Sequence record: SRR20825019_1295
Length of the DNA: 39,151 nt
Strand: one strand, 5' to 3'
Under the pieces are notes generated by a model, which was not told the origin of the DNA, did no database searches, and saw only the letters and a program-made list of their open reading frames with translations. Positions 19,268 to 30,211 of this stretch are shown here, piece by piece (position 1 is the stretch's first letter; every line of letters starts with the position of its first letter). Made by a program: the position numbers and the translations under genes.

Positions 19268-20377
19268 ATGGCACTTCAAGACGAAATAAATCAGAAGTCA
19301 TCTGAAATTCATACCGACTCATATCCTATGTCAATAGGAGAGATAATCTCAATCTATAAAGAAGGTGAATTAGATATTCATCCAGAATTTCAAAGATTCT
19401 TCAGATGGAATGAATCACAAAAATCTAAACTTATTGAATCAATTTTACTAGGAATCCCAATTCCTTCAATATTTGTATCCCAAAGAGAAAATGGTGTTTG
19501 GGATGTTATAGATGGATTGCAAAGACTATCCACTATTTTTGAGTTTGCAGGAATTCTAAAAGACAGAAATGGTGAGTTGAAAGATGCAAGTACTTTAAGG
19601 TCAACTAAATATTTGCCATCTTTAGAAGGCAAAAAGTGGGACTCTGAAGAAGAAAATTCCCTTACTGCTGATCAACGACTTTATATAAAAAGATCGAGAC
19701 TCAATCTCCAAATTGTTCAAAAAGAAAGTGATGATGACACAAAATATGAATTATTCCAAAGATTAAATACGGGAGGGACTCCATTATCTAATCAAGAACT
19801 TAGAAACTGTCTTTTGTTAATGATAGATAATGACTTTTTTGAATGGCTGAGTGATTTGGTAAAGGACGAAAATTTTCAAAATACCATAAGCTTAAGCGAT
19901 AAGAATTTAGAAGAAAGGTATGATGTTGAATTAGCACTTCGATTTTTTATAAATAAAAATTCTACAGAGGAAGAATTGACCAATTTTAGAGATATAGGAG
20001 AATTTATTACTGATCAAATGATAACATTTACAAAACCTGAAATGTTTGATAGAGACATAGAAAGCGAATTATTCAAGGATACATTTTCACTCCTTTACTC
20101 AGCCTTGGAAGATAACGCCTTTAAAAAATACAATTTTGATAAAAATAAATTTGAAGGGGGATTTTCTATATCTGCTTTTGAAGCTGTTTCAACTGGAATT
20201 TCATTTAATGAGCAAATCTACGATAAGACTGATGAGAATGACAAAAATATTTTAGTTGAAAAAGTGAAAAATCTCTGGTCAGAAGATTGGTTTAAATCAC
20301 ATTCAGGCGCAGGTGTTCAAGCTTATAGAAGATTACGAAAATTTGTTCCGAATTCTAAAGAGTATTTTTCAAAATGA
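19268..20377 (+). CDS. DUF262 (GmrS/ParB-like) domain protein
   Basis: PEFQRFFRW, LIESILLGIPIP, VIDGLQRLST, FQRLNTGG. Confidence 0.88.
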   Translation: MALQDEINQKSSEIHTDSYPMSIGEIISIYKEGELDIHPEFQRFFRWNESQKSKLIESILLGIPIPSIFVSQRENGVWDVIDGLQRLSTIFEFAGILKDRNGELKDASTLRSTKYLPSLEGKKWDSEEENSLTADQRLYIKRSRLNLQIVQKESDDDTKYELFQRLNTGGTPLSNQELRNCLLLMIDNDFFEWLSDLVKDENFQNTISLSDKNLEERYDVELALRFFINKNSTEEELTNFRDIGEFITDQMITFTKPEMFDRDIESELFKDTFSLLYSALEDNAFKKYNFDKNKFEGGFSISAFEAVSTGISFNEQIYDKTDENDKNILVEKVKNLWSEDWFKSHSGAGVQAYRRLRKFVPNSKEYFSK

Positions 20378-21021
20378 TGAAAATTAGATCTAAAGAAGCT
20401 TTACAACTTAAGATAGACGAAGATTCAGTTTGGCGAAAAAAAGAGATGTCCTTTCTATATAAGAGGGTGAAAAAATCGAATGATTTAATACTAAAAACAG
20501 AACTTAGAGTTGGAGTAGTTATGCTGTATGCACATTGGGAAGGATTTTTGAAGAATATTTTTGATTATTATTTTAACTATATATCTCATACGGAATCAAC
20601 TTATGAAGAACTTGCTAGTAATTTTCAAGTTATAGAAATTGAAAGAATATTGCTTAATTCAGATAAAACTCATTACGAAAGATGTCATAAGGCTCTAGAA
20701 TTTATTACAAAGGATCTTTCTAAAAAAGCTTTTTTTAATGAGTCAACTAACACCCAATCAAACTTAAATTTTGATCGCTTAGAATTAATTCTTCATAGAG
20801 CAGGATTTAATTCAAAAGAATTCAACCTTAAACAAAAATTAATAGATGAAAAACTTTTAGCTAATAGAAACACAATTGCTCACGGCAACTATTCTCAAAT
20901 TGGATTGAAAGATTTTGAATTACTGTACGAAGAAATAATGTCGATTATGGAAAAAATTAAAGTACATATCCTCAATTCTGTTATTTTAAAATCATACTCC
21001 GCAAAGGTTCTCAATAAATAA
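20374..21021 (+). CDS. HEPN domain protein (RiboL-PSP-HEPN / MAE_28990-like)
   Basis: LYAHWEGF and RNTIAHG (R-X4-H); overlaps the DUF262 stop codon. Confidence 0.82.
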   Translation: MMKIRSKEALQLKIDEDSVWRKKEMSFLYKRVKKSNDLILKTELRVGVVMLYAHWEGFLKNIFDYYFNYISHTESTYEELASNFQVIEIERILLNSDKTHYERCHKALEFITKDLSKKAFFNESTNTQSNLNFDRLELILHRAGFNSKEFNLKQKLIDEKLLANRNTIAHGNYSQIGLKDFELLYEEIMSIMEKIKVHILNSVILKSYSAKVLNK

Positions 21022-23433: not shown

Positions 23434-23441
23434 CACTAGGT

Positions 23442-23467
23442 GTCACCCTGAATTTACTTCAGGGTCT
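23442..23467 (+). repeat. GTCA-tagged palindrome, subfamily B
   Basis: GTCACCCTGAA-tttac-TTCAGGGTCT. Confidence 0.85.
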
Positions 23468-23478
23468 TTTCCAATTTT

Positions 23479-23503
23479 GTCATTCCTGCGTAGGCAGGAA
23501 TCC
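23479..23503 (+). repeat. GTCA-tagged palindrome, subfamily A (full length)
   Basis: GTCATTCCTGC-gtag-GCAGGAATCC. Confidence 0.9.
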
Positions 23504-23533
23504 ACTACTTACTAAATATTTGAACATTCTGAA

Positions 23534-24295: not shown

Positions 24296-24298
24296 TAA

Positions 24299-24321
24299 AT
24301 TCCTGCGAAAGCAGGAATCTC
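24299..24321 (+). repeat. Subfamily A palindrome, tag lost
   Basis: ATTCCTGC-gaaa-GCAGGAATCTC right after the paaC stop. Confidence 0.85.
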
Positions 24322-24344
24322 TAAAGATTCAGAAAATAAGGGCA

Positions 24345-24854: not shown

Positions 24855-24876
24855 TTCCTGCGTAGGCAGGAATCTC
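24854..24876 (+). repeat. Subfamily A palindrome, tag lost
   Basis: ATTCCTGC-gtag-GCAGGAATCTC overlapping the paaD stop. Confidence 0.85.
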
Positions 24877-24913
24877 TATGTTAGAAACGAGAACTTTAAA
24901 ATATAAGCTCGCC

Positions 24914-24995
24914 GTCATTCTGAATTCGTTTCAGAATCACATTATACTATTCAAAATTTGAAAAATAAGAGAACCTGAATCAAGTTCAGGTTGAC
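24914..24995. repeat. Inverted doublet of subfamily B palindromes (REPIN-like)
   Basis: GTCATTCTGAAttcgtTTCAGAATC (24914-24938) and reverse copy GTCAACCTGAActtgaTTCAGGTTCT (24995-24970). Confidence 0.85.
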
Positions 24996-25009
24996 AAAAA
25001 AAAAGAAAT

Positions 25010-25795
25010 ATGACCGACCAACCCATAATAAAAACCATAAACGGAAACGTTGCTACACTAAAGCTAAACCGACCAAAAGGTTTTAATAGTTTTAATCGTG
25101 AGATGGCGTTGCTGTTTCAAGATGAACTAAAAGCTTGTGATAAGGATGACAGCATTCGTGCGATTCTTATAACAGGTGAAGGCAAAGCATTTTGTGCTGG
25201 TCAAGACTTGAAGGAAGTTACAACTCCAGAATTAAATCCAGGCTTCAAAAAAATTCTTAAAGAACATTACAATCCAATTATTGAATTGATTCGCAATATT
25301 GAAAAACCAATAGTTTGTGCCGTAAATGGCGTTGCAGCTGGCGCTGGTGCGAACATTGCTTTGGCTTGTGATATTGTTATTGCTTCAGAACACGCTAGTT
25401 TTATACAAGCGTTTAGTAAAATTGGCTTGGTGCCAGATAGCGCTGGAACCTTCTTTTTACCAAGGTTAATCGGCTTTCAAAAAGCTTCAGCATTAATGAT
25501 GTTAGGTGATAAAGTTTCAGCTAAAGAAGCAGATGAACTGGGAATGATATACAAAGTTTTTTCTGCAGAAGACTATTTCTCTGAAGCTGAAAAAACTGCT
25601 CAGACATTATCTAAAATGCCTACCAAAGCATTGGGAATGACAAAGCGTTTGCTCAACCAATCAATGACCAATACACTTACTGAACAACTAGAGTTAGAAG
25701 GCAAGCTACAAATTGAAGCTGCCCAAAGCGAAGATTACGCAGAAGGTGTGGATGCGTTTGTGAATAAGCGCAAACCAGAATTTAAAGGCAGATAA
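25010..25795 (+). CDS. paaG: Ring 1,2-epoxyphenylacetyl-CoA isomerase
   Basis: FCAGQDL, AAGAGANIALACD, QAFSKIGLVPDS. Confidence 0.88.
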   Translation: MTDQPIIKTINGNVATLKLNRPKGFNSFNREMALLFQDELKACDKDDSIRAILITGEGKAFCAGQDLKEVTTPELNPGFKKILKEHYNPIIELIRNIEKPIVCAVNGVAAGAGANIALACDIVIASEHASFIQAFSKIGLVPDSAGTFFLPRLIGFQKASALMMLGDKVSAKEADELGMIYKVFSAEDYFSEAEKTAQTLSKMPTKALGMTKRLLNQSMTNTLTEQLELEGKLQIEAAQSEDYAEGVDAFVNKRKPEFKGR

Positions 25796-25814
25796 ATAAT
25801 AAACTCAAAATGAT

Positions 25815-25872
25815 AAATGTAAAATTATAAAGGCATAGAACTTTGAAATTTTACATTTTAAATTTTACATTT
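25815..25872. repeat. AT-rich period-7 inverted repeat
   Basis: AAATGTAAAATT (25815-25826) is the reverse complement of AATTTTACATTT at 25847-25858 and 25861-25872. Confidence 0.6.
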
Positions 25873-25877
25873 TTAAG

Positions 25878-27041
25878 ATGATAAAGAACGTAGGAATCAT
25901 AGGAGCAGGAACAATGGGAAGTGGTATCGCGCAAGTTGCTGCTACAGCTGATTGTAAAGTCAAACTCTTCGATTTAAGTCAAGAAGCACTCGATAAGGCC
26001 AAAGCAGCTTTAGAGAAAATATTAAATCGGTTAATTGAAAAAGGCCGAATCGATGTTGAAGAAAAGAACCGTATTCAAGATAACATCTCTTATATTTCAG
26101 ATATGAAGAGCTTTTCTGATGCGGATATGACTATTGAAGCCATTGTTGAAAATATCGACATTAAAAAGAAAGTGTTTCAGGAGTTGGAAAGCATTGTTTC
26201 TGAAGATTGTATCATTGCTTCAAACACCTCAAGTTTGTCGATTGCTTCCATTGCGTCATCACTAGATAAACCTGAACGTTGTGTAGGGATTCACTTTTTT
26301 AATCCAGCACCGTTAATGAAATTGGTTGAGGTTATTCCAGCAATACAGACTTCAGAAGCAACGTTGAATACGTCAGTAGACACTATTGAAAGTTGGAAGA
26401 AAGTTGTTGCAGTAGCTAAGGACACACCAGGATTTATTGTCAACCGTGTTGCACGACCATTTTATAGCGAGTCACTCAGACAATATGAAGAAGGCATCGC
26501 CGACTTCGCCACGATTGATTGGGCGATGAAGGAATTTGGAGGCTTTAGAATGGGACCTTTTGAATTAATGGATTTTATAGGAAACGATGTGAATTACACG
26601 GTTACTGAAACTGTTTTTGAAGCATTCTATTATGACCCACGTTACAAGCCAGCGTTCACTCAAAAACGCTTTTCTGAAGCAGGATATTTAGGCAGAAAAT
26701 CAGGTAAAGGCTATTACAATTATTCTGAAGGCGCTACGAAACCAGAGCCTAACAAAGATGCAGCCTTAGGACAAAACATTTTCAATAGAACATTAGTGAT
26801 GCTTATCAATGAAGCTGCTGATGCCTTGTTTTGGAATGTCGCTTCAGCAAAAGATATTGATAATGCGATGACCAAAGGTGTCAACTACCCAAAAGGTTTA
26901 CTCGCTTGGGCAAATGAAAAGGGAATCGATTGGTGTGTTACGGAATTAGACAAATTGTACAATGAGTATCACGAAGACAGGTACCGTTGTTCACCGATGC
27001 TGCGTAGGATGAAGGATTCAGGAAGTAAGTTTGAGGTATAA
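25878..27041 (+). CDS. paaH: 3-hydroxyacyl(adipyl)-CoA dehydrogenase
   Basis: GAGTMGSGIA, SNTSSL, HFFNPAP, PGFIVNR, MGPFEL. Confidence 0.88.
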   Translation: MIKNVGIIGAGTMGSGIAQVAATADCKVKLFDLSQEALDKAKAALEKILNRLIEKGRIDVEEKNRIQDNISYISDMKSFSDADMTIEAIVENIDIKKKVFQELESIVSEDCIIASNTSSLSIASIASSLDKPERCVGIHFFNPAPLMKLVEVIPAIQTSEATLNTSVDTIESWKKVVAVAKDTPGFIVNRVARPFYSESLRQYEEGIADFATIDWAMKEFGGFRMGPFELMDFIGNDVNYTVTETVFEAFYYDPRYKPAFTQKRFSEAGYLGRKSGKGYYNYSEGATKPEPNKDAALGQNIFNRTLVMLINEAADALFWNVASAKDIDNAMTKGVNYPKGLLAWANEKGIDWCVTELDKLYNEYHEDRYRCSPMLRRMKDSGSKFEV

Positions 27042-27043
27042 AA

Positions 27044-27115
27044 AGCCTGGAGCTGTGAGCCTTTAGCTATGAGATAAAAAAGGCATTAGGTATTTGGAAA
27101 TAGGCATTAGTAATG
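27044..27115. repeat. Heptamer arrays upstream of the four-helix-bundle gene
   Basis: AGCCTGG AGCTGTG AGCCTTT AGCTATG (27044-27071); AGGCATT AGGTATT TGGAAAT AGGCATT AGTAATG (27081-27115). Confidence 0.75.
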
Positions 27116-27493
27116 AATAGTGATTACAATTTTAAGTTTGAGGATTTACAAGTTTATCAAAAGGCGATGGACTTTGGAGAAGTCGTTGACAAAATTGTAA
27201 AGGATTTTCCTAAACACGAATTATATACTTTATCATCTCAATTTAGAAGAGCTGCAGATTCCATTGCTTTAAATCTTGCCGAAGGTTATCCAGGTTCAGA
27301 TGCTCAATTTGTGAAACATATTAATCACGCAATTTATAGCGCTAATGAATGTGTGAGTTGTAGCATAAAAGCTATCAGAAGAAATTATATCAGTCATCAA
27401 CAAAATGAAGAAAACAGAAAGTTAATTTCAGAAATGACAAAAATGATGTCTTCGCTTAGAAACAAAATCTTAGAACGAAACAAAAAGTACTAA
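27113..27493 (+). CDS. Four-helix-bundle protein (23S rRNA IVP / bAvd-like)
   Basis: FEDLQVYQKA, FPKHELY.LSSQFRRAADSIALNLAEG. Confidence 0.9.
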   Translation: MNSDYNFKFEDLQVYQKAMDFGEVVDKIVKDFPKHELYTLSSQFRRAADSIALNLAEGYPGSDAQFVKHINHAIYSANECVSCSIKAIRRNYISHQQNEENRKLISEMTKMMSSLRNKILERNKKY

Positions 27494-27504
27494 TCCTTAT
27501 CAAT

Positions 27505-27560
27505 TACTAATACCAAATCCCTATTCCCTAATGCCTATTTCCAAAACCAAAATCCCAAAT
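27505..27560. repeat. Heptamer array downstream of the four-helix-bundle gene, inverted relative to the upstream array
   Basis: TACTAAT ACCAAAT CCCTATT CCCTAAT GCCTATT TCCAAAA CCAAAAT CCCAAAT; 27528-27545 is the exact reverse complement of 27093-27110. Confidence 0.8.
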
Positions 27561-27941
27561 AAAATGCTAAGTCAAGACCACTTCTCAACCTGGCTCGGCA
27601 TAGAAATTATAAGTGTCGAAATAGGTCGCGTTAAGGTTGGAATGACCATTCGCAAAGAAATGCTGAATAGTATGGGAAAAGCACACGGCGGCATTTCATA
27701 CAGTTTAGCCGATACTGCTTTTGGATTTTCAGCAAACACACACGGAAAATATGCAGTAAGTATTGAAACTTCGATTAATCATATCGAAGCACTTGAAGAA
27801 GGCGATTATATTACTGCTGAAGCGGTGACAGATGTTTCAAAGAAAAAAGTAGGGTTCAATATTGTCGAAGTTAAGCGAGGCGACCAACTTGTTGCGCTAT
27901 TTAAAGGCGTTGTGTACAGAACGAGCAAAGATTGGGAATAA
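27531..27941 (+). CDS. paaI: Hotdog-fold acyl-CoA thioesterase
   Basis: MLNSMGKAHGGISYSLADTAFG; paa context. Confidence 0.88.
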   Translation: MPISKTKIPNKMLSQDHFSTWLGIEIISVEIGRVKVGMTIRKEMLNSMGKAHGGISYSLADTAFGFSANTHGKYAVSIETSINHIEALEEGDYITAEAVTDVSKKKVGFNIVEVKRGDQLVALFKGVVYRTSKDWE

Positions 27942-27989
27942 GCATTTAGAAAATTGTATTTTTAAAGGACTAACCATAACCTATTAAAT

Positions 27990-28853
27990 ATGAAATGGAA
28001 AGGTAGAAGAAAAAGTGGCAATCTCGATGACCGTCGTGGTATGAGTACCAAAGGTAAAGTCGCCGCTGGTGGTGGCGTGATTGCTGTTATTGTCATTTTA
28101 CTCCAACTTTTTGGAGGTGAAACAGGTCAGCAAATTGCACCAATTGTTGAGCAAATCAATAATTCCAGAACGACGACTCAGCAAACCACTTCAAGAGAAC
28201 TCACTTCAGCAGAACAAGAAATGGGCGATTTTATGGCGACTGTTTTAGCAGATACAGAAGATGTGTGGAATCAGCTATTTCGTCAAAATAATTTAGGCGA
28301 TTATAAAGAACCACAAATGGTTTTGTTTACCGATGTTGTAAACACGCGTTGCGGAAAAGCAAGTTCAGCTTCTGGACCATTTTATTGTCCTGGCGACCAA
28401 AAAGTCTATATGGATTTAGCGTTCTTCAAAGAACTACGAACACGTTTTGGTGCAAAAGGTGGCGATTTTGCTATTGCATATGTCACGGCTCACGAGATTG
28501 GGCATCACGTTCAAACCTTATTAGGAACATCACGCCAAGTTCAACAAGCAAAACAAGGACGTTCTCAAGCAGATGCCAATAAGTTATCTGTGGCTCAAGA
28601 ACTCCAAGCTGATTTTTACGCAGGACTTTGGGCGCATTACAATAAAAAATATTTGGACGAAGGCGATATCGAAGAAGCATTAAGCGCGGCACAAGCCGTT
28701 GGTGATGATGCCATTCAAAAAAGAACCAGAGGTTATGTTCAGCCAGACAGTTTCACACACGGCACAAGCAGGCAACGTATGGAATGGTTTATGAAAGGTT
28801 TTAGAAGTGGAGATATGAGCCAACACGATACGTTTAAAGCCATTTTAAATTAA
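27990..28853 (+). CDS. Neutral zinc metallopeptidase (YpfJ-like)
   Basis: GPFYCP.D, AHEIGHHVQ (HExxH), ELQAD, SFTHG. Confidence 0.9.
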   Translation: MKWKGRRKSGNLDDRRGMSTKGKVAAGGGVIAVIVILLQLFGGETGQQIAPIVEQINNSRTTTQQTTSRELTSAEQEMGDFMATVLADTEDVWNQLFRQNNLGDYKEPQMVLFTDVVNTRCGKASSASGPFYCPGDQKVYMDLAFFKELRTRFGAKGGDFAIAYVTAHEIGHHVQTLLGTSRQVQQAKQGRSQADANKLSVAQELQADFYAGLWAHYNKKYLDEGDIEEALSAAQAVGDDAIQKRTRGYVQPDSFTHGTSRQRMEWFMKGFRSGDMSQHDTFKAILN

Positions 28854-28863
28854 CATCAAAATT

Positions 28864-28933
28864 TCAGTTCGAGCGGAGTCGATAACAATTAAAACTCCAA
28901 AAGTCAAAACATCTCGACTCCGCTCGATGTGAC
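28864..28933. repeat. Inverted doublet of subfamily C palindromes
   Basis: TCGAGCGGAGTCGA (28869-28882) pairs with TCGACTCCGCTCGA (28914-28927); right copy ends in TGAC. Confidence 0.85.
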
Positions 28934-28958
28934 AAATTAAATTATAATTAATACTGTC

Positions 28959-28994
28959 TTCGATTTCAAATTCGATTTCAGTTTCAAATTCATA
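28959..28994. repeat. Hexamer tract, six TTCRNN units
   Basis: TTCGAT TTCAAA TTCGAT TTCAGT TTCAAA TTCATA immediately before the paaJ ATG. Confidence 0.7.
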
Positions 28995-28996
28995 AA

Positions 28997-30211
28997 ATGA
29001 AAGAAGCATATATCATAGACGGAACACGCACACCAATCGGAAGTTACCACGGCACATTATCTGCTGTTAGGACAGACGATTTGGGAGCAATGGTCATCAA
29101 ACACGTACTAGAAAAAAATCCAAACATCCCAAAAGACGCATTCGACGATGTTATAATGGGTTGTGCCAACCAAGCTGGTGAAGACAACCGCAACGTCGCA
29201 AGAATGTGTTCACTACTTGCCGGAATGCCGTTTTCGGTTCCTGGCGAAACGGTGAACAGATTATGCAGTTCAGGTCTTTCGGCAATCATCCACGCTAACC
29301 GAGCAATAAAAGCTGGTGACGGCGACTTATTCATTTCTGGAGGTGTCGAGAATATGACGCGCGGACCATACGTGATGAGCAAACCATCTAAAGCATTTGG
29401 GAACGACAGTAAGATGTACGACTCTAGTTTTGGCTGGCGTTTTGTAAATACAAAAATGCACGAAATGTACGGCACAGATGGTATGGGAAACACTGCTGAG
29501 AATCTAGTCGAGAAATACAATATCAGTCGTGAAGACCAAGATGCTTTTGCTTACAATAGTCAGATGAAAGCAACTAAAGCTCAAGAAAATGGGCGTTTAG
29601 CAAAGGAAATAATGACTGTTGAAATTCCGCAACGCAAAAAAGACCCAATACAATTCAGTAAAGATGAATTTGTAAAACCAACAACTACGAAGGAAATTCT
29701 TGGTAAGCTTAGACCTGCTTTCAAAAAAGAAAGTGGTAGTGTTACTGCAGGAAATTCTTCAGGATTAAATGATGGTGCGGCCGCTACTATTGTCGCTTCA
29801 GAAGATGCTGTAAAGAAATACAATCTAAAGCCATTGGCACGAATCGTTTCTTCTGCCGTTGTGGGTGTCGAGCCAAGAATTATGGGAATCGGTCCAGTAA
29901 AGGCGAGTAATAAAGCCTTAGAAAAAGCCGGTTTAACTATGGAAGATATAGATGTCATCGAACTCAACGAAGCCTTTGCAGCACAAGCATTAGCCTGCAT
30001 TCGCGAATGGGGGTTAAAGGACGACGACCCAAGAATTAACCCTAATGGCGGCTCAATTGCCATCGGTCATCCGCTTGGCGTAACAGGCGCGCGCATCGCC
30101 TATTCTGCGGCTTTAGAGTTGCAGGAAACTAACAAGCGTTACGCATTAGTTACGATGTGCGTCGGTGTTGGACAAGGCTATGCGGCGATTATCGAAAACG
30201 TGAATTTATAG
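28997..30211 (+). CDS. paaJ: 3-oxoadipyl-CoA thiolase (PaaJ/PcaF)
   Basis: NQAGEDNRNVARM, NRLCSSG, NEAFA, GHPLG, MCVGVGQG. Confidence 0.92.
   Translation: MKEAYIIDGTRTPIGSYHGTLSAVRTDDLGAMVIKHVLEKNPNIPKDAFDDVIMGCANQAGEDNRNVARMCSLLAGMPFSVPGETVNRLCSSGLSAIIHANRAIKAGDGDLFISGGVENMTRGPYVMSKPSKAFGNDSKMYDSSFGWRFVNTKMHEMYGTDGMGNTAENLVEKYNISREDQDAFAYNSQMKATKAQENGRLAKEIMTVEIPQRKKDPIQFSKDEFVKPTTTKEILGKLRPAFKKESGSVTAGNSSGLNDGAAATIVASEDAVKKYNLKPLARIVSSAVVGVEPRIMGIGPVKASNKALEKAGLTMEDIDVIELNEAFAAQALACIREWGLKDDDPRINPNGGSIAIGHPLGVTGARIAYSAALELQETNKRYALVTMCVGVGQGYAAIIENVNL

Follow-up and report, generated by a model that had tools for sequence, protein, structure and literature searches.

A four-helix-bundle gene between complementary heptamer arrays at the paaH/paaI junction: an mRNA-operon counterpart of ORF-bearing rRNA intervening sequences

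Why should a small gene for a four-helix-bundle (4HB) protein lie between paaH and paaI of a phenylacetate operon, with short tandem repeats on one side that are complementary to those on the other? We examined this arrangement in a 39,151-nt stretch of DNA (sequence record SRR20825019_1295; hereafter the window, with positions counted from its first letter). The window carries a complete phenylacetate cluster with every gene on the + strand, in the order TetR, paaE, paaA, paaB, paaC, paaD, enoyl-CoA hydratase, paaH, the 4HB gene, paaI, Zn-peptidase, thiolase, short-chain dehydrogenase/reductase, paaZ, second hydratase and hexapeptide protein. We are highly confident that the gene and its complementary arrays form a cassette of the rRNA-intervening-sequence type within an mRNA operon, which entered this junction before at least nine genera diverged and has been inherited vertically since. 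The full account, which takes in the identity of the cassette, its history, its working through an RNA stem and its turnover at the DNA level, we consider somewhat better than an even bet. The features of the junction are the following.

25878..27041, + strand: paaH-type 3-hydroxyacyl-CoA dehydrogenase, the upstream host gene (3HCDH_N, E 5.6e-64; 3HCDH, E 6.4e-46)
27045..27076, + strand: outer upstream array of GCNNNGA-type units, sharing the 7-nt register of the inner arm and with no downstream complement
27077..27112, + strand: 5' arm of G-rich TAGGNAT-type units, containing the 18-bp arm 27093-27110 and ending 0 nt from the 4HB ATG
27113-27493, + strand: gene for the 4HB protein of 126 aa (PF05635 / TIGR02436 by profile matches)
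27488..27563, + strand: 3' arm of C-rich units (the TAGGNAT complement, read CCTAATG), starting at the 4HB stop and containing 27528-27545
27531..27941, + strand: paaI hotdog thioesterase, the downstream host gene (4HBT; TIGR00369, 73 bits, cut-off 36.6)

The stop codon of paaH occupies 27039-27041 by direct reading, and the 4HB open reading frame (ORF) runs from the ATG at 27113 to the TAA at 27491-27493. Its product matched PF05635 at 97 bits (cut-off 33.8) over profile positions 1-105 of 106 and TIGR02436 at 92.6 bits (cut-off 24), which bore out an earlier interpretation made from the letters of this DNA (the sequence-only reading) that had placed it in the Avd/23S-IVP-like four-helix-bundle family. 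By sequence, its relatives in the PDB were 2gsc_A (E 4.7e-7) and 2rld_A (E 3.8e-5), with five chains in each entry, and a Xanthomonas member of the protein family is described as a pentamer in the available part of PMC4990558. The frame of paaI opens at ATG 27531. The residues that this ATG adds align with the conserved PaaI N-terminus of relatives that lack the cassette, and the best-named NCBIfam match of the protein was the PaaI model TIGR02286, at 98.3 bits under a cut-off of 118.9.

The best lag was 7 in both flanks of the 4HB gene, with an identity of 0.57 upstream and 0.69 downstream. Upstream, the register starts at 27045 and continues without a break for 9.7 units up to the ATG at 27113; downstream, it extends from the 4HB stop to 27563 (27494-27563), exactly 10 units. 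Tandem Repeats Finder (TRF) detected the downstream array alone, and at its lowest threshold (27518-27539, 3.1 copies, score 30), indicating that the arrays are degenerate. The perfect inverted repeats of 18 bp and 9 bp that had been reported earlier were both exact: 27093-27110 is the reverse complement of 27528-27545, and 27106-27114 that of 27503-27511. A repeat search extended the arms to 29 nt at 83% complementarity (27082-27110/27528-27556), and a second extended pair spanned 63 nt at 73% (27077-27139/27478-27540); the two pairing registers lie 21 nt, or 3 units, apart. The flank inverted-repeat score was 18.5, whereas 100 shuffles gave a mean of 7.8 and a maximum of 11 and six displaced controls gave at most 12. 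The sequence-only description of inverted heptamer arrays around the gene held for the complementary period-7 flanks but not for the first four upstream units (27045-27072), which have no downstream complement; the C-rich downstream units keep their period-7 register, but the last five (27529-27563) are the first codons of paaI. The closing helix takes in the last codons of the 4HB ORF, the first 3' unit contributes its TAA as the 4HB stop codon, and a later CCTAATG unit (27529-27535), within the 18-bp arm, supplies the start codon of paaI, whose codons 1-11 lie inside the 3' array.

How long has the cassette been at this place? We collected 29 related loci with proteins 62-89% identical, and 20 of them lay at the same paaH/paaI junction as judged by flanking sequence (17 intact and aligned, and L070, L077 and L089 placed by eye). 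Two of the 20 had shortened ORFs (L070, 95 aa; L089, 101 aa). The hosts were Bizionia, Winogradskyella, Lacinutrix, Oceanihabitans, Gelidibacter, Dokdonia, Psychroserpens, Ulvibacter, Patiriisocius, SCB49 and two metagenome-assembled genomes, in all at least nine genera of Flavobacteriaceae. In an alignment of 18 orthologues (the window and the 17 intact ones), the coding block was gap-free, with pairwise identities of 0.86, 0.93 and 0.59 at codon positions 1, 2 and 3, and the median dN/dS was 0.068 at dS 1.6 (118 of 153 pairs). The 4HB gene is under strong purifying selection. Purifying selection extends to the arm sequence: the arms were 0.73 (5') and 0.85 (3') identical, both above codon position 3, and 72 units of the 5' arm gave the consensus T-A-G-G-N-A-T. 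Because the sequence of the unit is conserved where synonymous sites are saturated, a sequence-specific reader is suggested, with the cassette's own protein as the obvious candidate. To judge from these alignments, the cassette is an old, vertically inherited resident of the paaH/paaI junction and not a young insert, so that the minimal mobile cassette proposed in the sequence-only reading gave way to a long-standing one. A recent mobile insertion had been our own initial reading as well, and it was dropped once orthologues across genera appeared at the same junction. Comparison of filled with empty junctions revealed no unambiguous target-site duplication, the junction being too old for one to be read.

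The same design recurs far from the phenylacetate genes. PF05635 is widespread: 88 of the 121 family genomes matched it, with a maximum of 17 matches in one genome, and so did 114 of 151 genomes in a sample of the phylum. We scored the flanks of 91 cassettes of the family together with the window, a set of top-scoring matches that is neither random nor independent. The inverted flank score lay above all 50 shuffles in 60 of these 92 cassettes, while a direct alignment did so in 15. Among the 53 with a score of at least 14, the G-rich arm was upstream in 46, and the best period was 7 in 35, 8 in nine, 9 in three and 12 in one, with none in five. Of 30 cassettes taken from elsewhere in the phylum, outside this family, 22 exceeded their shuffles and 24 exceeded the maximum of 177 displaced controls; those with a score of at least 14 had the G-rich arm upstream in 21 of 21 cases, with period 7 in 13 and period 8 in five. 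Comparable flanks around homologues, for which the sequence-only reading had suggested a search, were thus found in both the family and the phylum. Co-directional ORFs stood on both sides in 113 of 118 cassettes, at median gaps of 42 and 38.5 nt. The upstream neighbours that recurred across genera were housekeeping genes, among them metH pieces, thiolase, panB, sdhA, groES, trpE, clpP, a leuC-type aconitase, an Fe-S assembly protein and PaaA/B; two other surveyed cassettes followed a PaaA/PaaC-family gene (L059, then PaaB, and L150). We counted 43 site classes, and the median protein identity was 73% for pairs with a shared flanking family and 40% otherwise. Because of this difference, most cassettes are read as long-term residents of their own junctions, with occasional relocation. 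The 5' arm ended no more than 15 nt from the 4HB start in 38 of 64 cassettes, and the 3' arm overlapped positions -15..+3 of the downstream start in 47 of 64.

Relatives without the gene, which had also been proposed for comparison, do exist. The 4HB gene occurred in none of the 11 junctions of other relatives in which paaH and paaI could be placed; nine loci without one or both genes (L003, L013, L014, L016-L020 and L030) and duplicate spacers were left aside. In seven of ten more distant relatives paaH and paaI abut or overlap, one of them with a TAATG overlap and two with the paaI ATG on or one base past the paaH stop, and in three of the ten the 104-187 nt between the genes are filled by hairpins resembling repetitive extragenic palindromes (REP-like hairpins). 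The nearest genome, G001, has no 4HB gene between a paaH and a paaI that are 90% and 97% identical to those of the window at the DNA level. Its junction measures 116 nt from the paaH stop to a conserved internal Met codon of paaI (window 27564), and about 65 nt, including half of a REP-like hairpin (the element of window 28863-28934), stand in place of window 27020-27506. The 3' array, with two extra units, and the paaI ATG are retained, while the 5' arm is gone. Since the cassette is old and conserved at this junction, G001 is best read as a secondary loss of the gene together with the 5' arm.

G001 also carries a cassette that the window lacks. At its paaB/paaC junction (L001 1430-1870) lies a different PF05635 gene of 115 aa between inverted hexamer arrays with a 17-nt exact match, which indicates that the cassette design is not tied to period 7; at this position the window has two REP-like hairpins instead. 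Cassettes of the window lineage were found at other places as well. In L074 a close relative, 85% identical to the Winogradskyella copies, lies between the Zn-peptidase and thiolase genes, and the paaH/paaI junction of the same genome is free of a cassette. An intact copy of the window lineage lies between paaI and thiolase in L079. The paaH/paaI junction of L079 (437-1018) is occupied by a 4HB gene from a different lineage that has decayed; two stops interrupt its frame, and its arms consist of 8-nt GAGTCATT-type units. Five Nonlabens loci have a close relative ahead of an ORF, with the 3' array grown to about 12 units, and two further relocated places are those of L081 and L088. TAGGNAT-type units were retained in L074, L079 and L081, and the Nonlabens units are a near variant; the unit type follows the gene lineage and not the site. 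In four of the Nonlabens loci (L084, L085, L086 and L090) the 3' array consists of about 8-12 perfect CCACATA units, a growth that looks like simple-repeat slippage.

Other repeats occupy spacers of the same operon. GC-rich short REP-like hairpins stand in nearly all operon spacers of the window (23434-23533, 24296-24344, 24855-25009 and 28862-28932), and they differ between the window and G001, the hairpin 28863-28934 being absent in G001. Directly 5' of the thiolase start lies a solo C/T-rich array of period 6/12 (28940-28996) that is 100% identical in G001 and resembles the 3' arm of the hexamer-armed cassette of G001. The junction ahead of thiolase is occupied by a 4HB cassette in L074 and L079, and the solo array may be a leftover cassette arm.

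We propose the following account of how the element is built and works. The unit is a promoterless PF05635 4HB gene with its own pair of complementary heptamer arrays, in which the 5' units read TAGGNAT and the 3' units read CCTAATG, the latter with a stop codon overlapping a start codon. It entered at the stop/start junction of paaH and paaI, where the ATG of a later unit became the start codon of paaI. Read-through from the paa operon would account for its transcription, and the arrays of the resulting RNA would pair into a stem of about 20-30 bp, with the ORF enclosed and the initiation regions of the 4HB gene and of paaI both covered. This stem may be a structure for processing or for translational coupling, comparable to the RNase III stem of 23S rRNA intervening sequences. 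The conserved unit would probably be read by a factor acting in trans, for which the most plausible candidate is the protein encoded in the cassette itself, with its pentameric relatives of solved structure. Gain, loss and replacement take place at the DNA level, in this account by recombination. The RNA stem with its RNase III step is proposed by analogy and is a tentative part of the account, one that we would sooner bet against than for.

The surroundings of the cassette were examined with this account in mind. No convincing promoter was found in 25700-29100, where a sigma-70 scan gave 14 sites against 9.2 expected with a model that is not meaningful for this phylum, and the one terminator-like site in the same interval is weak and lies within the peptidase gene. 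An Rfam search of 26000-29200 (E <= 1) gave no rRNA match and one irrelevant chance match (E 0.39). An RNase III gene is encoded in G001. When 27040-27570 was folded, as the sequence-only reading had proposed, the energy was -115.4 kcal/mol against -93.5 +/- 5.3 for shuffles (z -4.17; 0 of 100 shuffles as good), and the closing stem, formed by the arms, joined both flanks in the minimum-free-energy and centroid structures. Pairing of the arms in the transcript is plausible on this folding model. RNA-library data were at hand as assembled contigs of four runs, which are uninformative on ends, strand and level and may contain DNA. Runs X4 and X5 carried a gene-less allele, with 65 letters separating 27019 from 27506 in one joint and 110 letters separating 27019 from 27551 in the other; this is a DNA-type allele with the same joint as the loss allele of G001. 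In runs X1 and X2, contigs of a 90-95% relative break at 27110/27111, between the 5' arm and the ATG, with unlike sequence on the two sides, which may reflect additional inserted DNA or a branch point of the assembly within the repeat. The contigs of these four runs do not demonstrate transcription or processing, and the looping-out or excision of the gene in the mRNA that the sequence-only reading proposed is a putative event.

Several results weigh against the proposed account, most of them against its RNA stem. A clean excision joint, with the two sides joined and nothing between, did not occur in the contigs of the four RNA-library runs. No flank repeat exceeded its shuffles in 32 of the 92 family cassettes. 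The mismatches in 53 flank stems, read on the sense strand, were 51 of the G.U type against 94 of the A.C type (12 loci against 26), and an earlier subset of the first 41 loci had given 14 against 51, while a slid-register control gave A.C/G.U ratios of 1.0-1.5, a compositional A.C bias. By these counts and ratios, the wobble tolerance of a helix selected as sense RNA is absent, a result that is the lack of an RNA-specific signature rather than proof of a bottom-strand fold. Duplex energy was slightly better on the opposite strand (medians of -30.9 against -30.0 kcal/mol; 34 loci against 19). The closing helix was nearly invariant in the 18 orthologues, and since double changes occurred in 2 of its 11 pairs (RNAalifold), covariation gives no proof of pairing. 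With the arms counted outside the ORF only, 5 of the 18 orthologues scored below 12, a count that misses the part of the 3' arm within the last codons; RNase III substrates usually have roughly 20 bp, and arms that score below 12 are shorter.

The same results bear on an explanation at the DNA level. In it, the arrays would form hairpins or cruciforms in single-stranded or supercoiled DNA and serve as recombination or mobilisation sites for a host enzyme acting in trans, like attC or the REP/RAYT system, with pairing in the transcript as a by-product. The Watson-Crick-strict complementarity, without a sense-strand G.U excess and with slightly better pairing on the opposite strand, speaks for it. 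So do the arms that accompany the gene wherever it is relocated (L074, L079, L081 and the Nonlabens loci), the entry of different cassette lineages into one junction, and the exchange of cassettes and REP-like hairpins in operon spacers between the window and G001. However, Pfam searches of 21 ORFs (13559-39117 of the window) found no recombinase, reverse transcriptase, transposase or integrase domain, in agreement with the earlier remark that no reverse transcriptase or transposase is nearby, and RVT_1 was not found in G001 (99% complete). The cassettes are mostly site-faithful, as their protein identities indicate, hence they seldom move; the strict placement of the G-rich arm with respect to the ORF is more easily understood at the level of RNA or translation; and no clear target-site duplication is readable at this old junction. 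We regard an element that works at the DNA level alone as unlikely.

Equally improbable, in our estimate, is that the arrays are adaptors. Each 3' unit holds an overlapping stop and start (TAATG) and each 5' unit a stop (TAG), and because neither period, 7 or 8, is divisible by 3, a run of three units would offer a stop and a start in every frame. The arrays would then be frame-independent adaptors of an operon-junction element, and the 4HB pentamer a sequence-specific reader of its own unit. If this were true, a promoterless gene could settle in any stop-start junction, leave the translation of its neighbours intact and move without a transposase of its own, and it would be the first function for a very large family that has been known since the first rRNA intervening sequences.

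A translational switch without cleavage has, in our judgement, a slimmer chance still. Here the 4HB pentamer would bind the TAGGNAT units in its own leader while these are single-stranded, or else the complementary units, and so set the closure of the stem over its own start and that of paaI, giving autoregulation and coupling with no RNase III. Conservation of the primary sequence of the unit, beyond pairing, at a divergence where synonymous sites are saturated is consistent with such a switch, as are the arm ends near starts in the surveyed cassettes, the paaI ATG inside the 18-bp arm of the window, the pentameric solved relatives (PMC4990558, in its available part) and the relation to Avd, a nucleic-acid-associated factor of diversity-generating retroelements (DGRs) according to the available part of PMC10053308. 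On the other hand, binding of the unit by the protein is purely putative and the protein is only mildly basic (pI 8.8; 19 K+R against 16 D+E), while with spacers of about 40 nt and arms of about 31 nt an overlap with the start regions is unavoidable. That the gene is an ordinary phenylacetate accessory gene, unconnected with arrays that arose in its spacers by chance from slippage-prone simple repeats, is disfavoured and very improbable: it is kept in the paa cluster across genera, its relocated copies mostly remain in the cluster and heptamer repeats are common in bacterial intergenic DNA (PMC4692102, available part), but the same inverted-array design occurs at 43 site classes with unrelated neighbours (groES, clpP, sdhA, trpE, panB, metH, thiolase), complementary flanks far outnumber direct ones, and the unit type tracks the gene lineage and not the site.

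We then placed the proposed rRNA-intervening-sequence-type cassette among known systems. Its likeness to 23S rRNA intervening sequences, claimed in the sequence-only reading, was substantiated by the intervening sequence of Coxiella burnetii, for which the available part of PMC4990558 describes a 28-bp inverted-repeat stem around an S23p ORF, cut by RNase III, and GACAGAT heptamers, variable in number between strains, that precede the S23p start. The same text cites ORF-bearing 23S intervening sequences for Leptospira, Brucella and Xanthomonas. Both elements have a protein of the same family in the loop and no mobility gene; in both, terminal inverted repeats close a stem (28 bp in Coxiella; in the window 18 bp perfect within 29 nt at 83%) and tandem heptamers stand directly 5' of the start in varying number, as in the two more 3' units of G001. 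They differ in that the host transcript of the window cassette is an mRNA at a paa stop/start junction and not helix 45 of 23S rRNA, and that the gene downstream has recruited its 3' arm as a start. Furthermore, the window ORF is under strong purifying selection, whereas that of Coxiella is described in the available text as decaying and probably untranslated. Cutting by RNase III is a demonstrated feature of the 23S elements according to that text; for the window cassette it is proposed by analogy. The feature is the mRNA-operon-junction counterpart of the ORF-bearing rRNA intervening sequence.

Other comparisons were less close. We know of no Avd genes described with inverted heptamer flanks. 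The Avd model NF033474 matched the 4HB protein weakly (E 1.3e-5; 25.5 bits against an equivalog cut-off of 80), and no reverse transcriptase was found in the scanned window ORFs or in G001, template/variable repeats not having been searched for. The likeness to Avd, the accessory variability determinant of DGRs, lies in the homologous four-helix-bundle fold family (PMC10053308, available part). Dispersed heptamers are described for Xanthomonas (GGGAATC) and Nostoc in the available part of PMC4692102, with 70 cases in X. campestris of two close arrays on opposite strands that are capable of forming a stem-loop. These share with the window their G-rich 7-nt units in intergenic DNA, but the window arrays have GG runs only and bracket a gene, and the repeats of PMC4692102 are treated there, as far as the available text goes, as quadruplex-forming; that part of the text holds no mention of S23p, intervening sequences or four-helix bundles. 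As regards transposon or MITE (miniature inverted-repeat transposable element) traits, no transposase domain is nearby and cassettes at different sites have a median protein identity of 40%. Integron cassettes are promoterless single genes with foldable imperfect inverted repeats; their expression depends on a promoter outside the cassette, and related genomes differ by their gain and loss. They have one 3' attC, form an array adjoining intI and insert at attI. The window cassette resembles them as a promoterless single-gene unit with foldable repeats, gained and lost between relatives, but its repeats lie on both sides and consist of short tandem units, no integrase is among the neighbours, and cassettes of its class sit singly inside housekeeping operons.

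What was known beforehand, in the available parts of the two sources, is the rRNA version with heptamers (PMC4990558) and paired convergent heptamer arrays in Xanthomonas without a link to this protein family (PMC4692102). In addition, a PF05635-family member is differentially expressed in a Flavobacterium transcriptome (PMC5787105, available part). Our literature search, which covered sources outside subscription journals and supplements, found no description of non-rRNA PF05635 genes bracketed by inverted short-period arrays. The window contributes deep vertical conservation at one junction, donation of a start codon to the gene downstream, an allele in which the gene is lost and one arm retained, a junction occupied by cassettes of two lineages, variants with units of six and eight bases, and a negative wobble test. 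PF05635 proteins are among the commonest small 'unknowns' of the phylum and are often multicopy, and their sole assigned role is that of Avd in retroelements. The gene and its complementary short-period arrays are one heritable unit, which can persist for the history of a whole family under purifying selection and wedges itself into housekeeping operons such as groES-groEL, clpP-clpX, sdhA-sdhB, trpE-trpG and paa. The unit links three printed observations: intervening sequences in rRNA, the heptamers that they contain, and the paired heptamer repeats of bacteria, which had lacked an explanation. This link raises the questions of what reads the unit, whether the stem is cut and by which route a gene without a recombinase reaches new junctions. 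The paaH/paaI lineage is a good model for them, with intact, lost, relocated and decayed states among cultured marine strains.

Some further observations concern the neighbourhood. The spacer between the hydratase gene and paaH (25796-25877) has period-7/14 repeats (TRF 25842-25873, score 57) and a 12-bp inverted repeat whose arms enclose no gene. A Zn-metallopeptidase gene (PF04228, E 3.6e-104; 27990-28853) lies between paaI and thiolase and holds the same place in L074. Between TetR and paaE (19268-21021), a gene of the GmrSD_N (DUF262) type shares 4 nt with a gene for a HEPN protein (RiboL-PSP / MAE_28990), and the two look like a defence pair lodged in the paa cluster.

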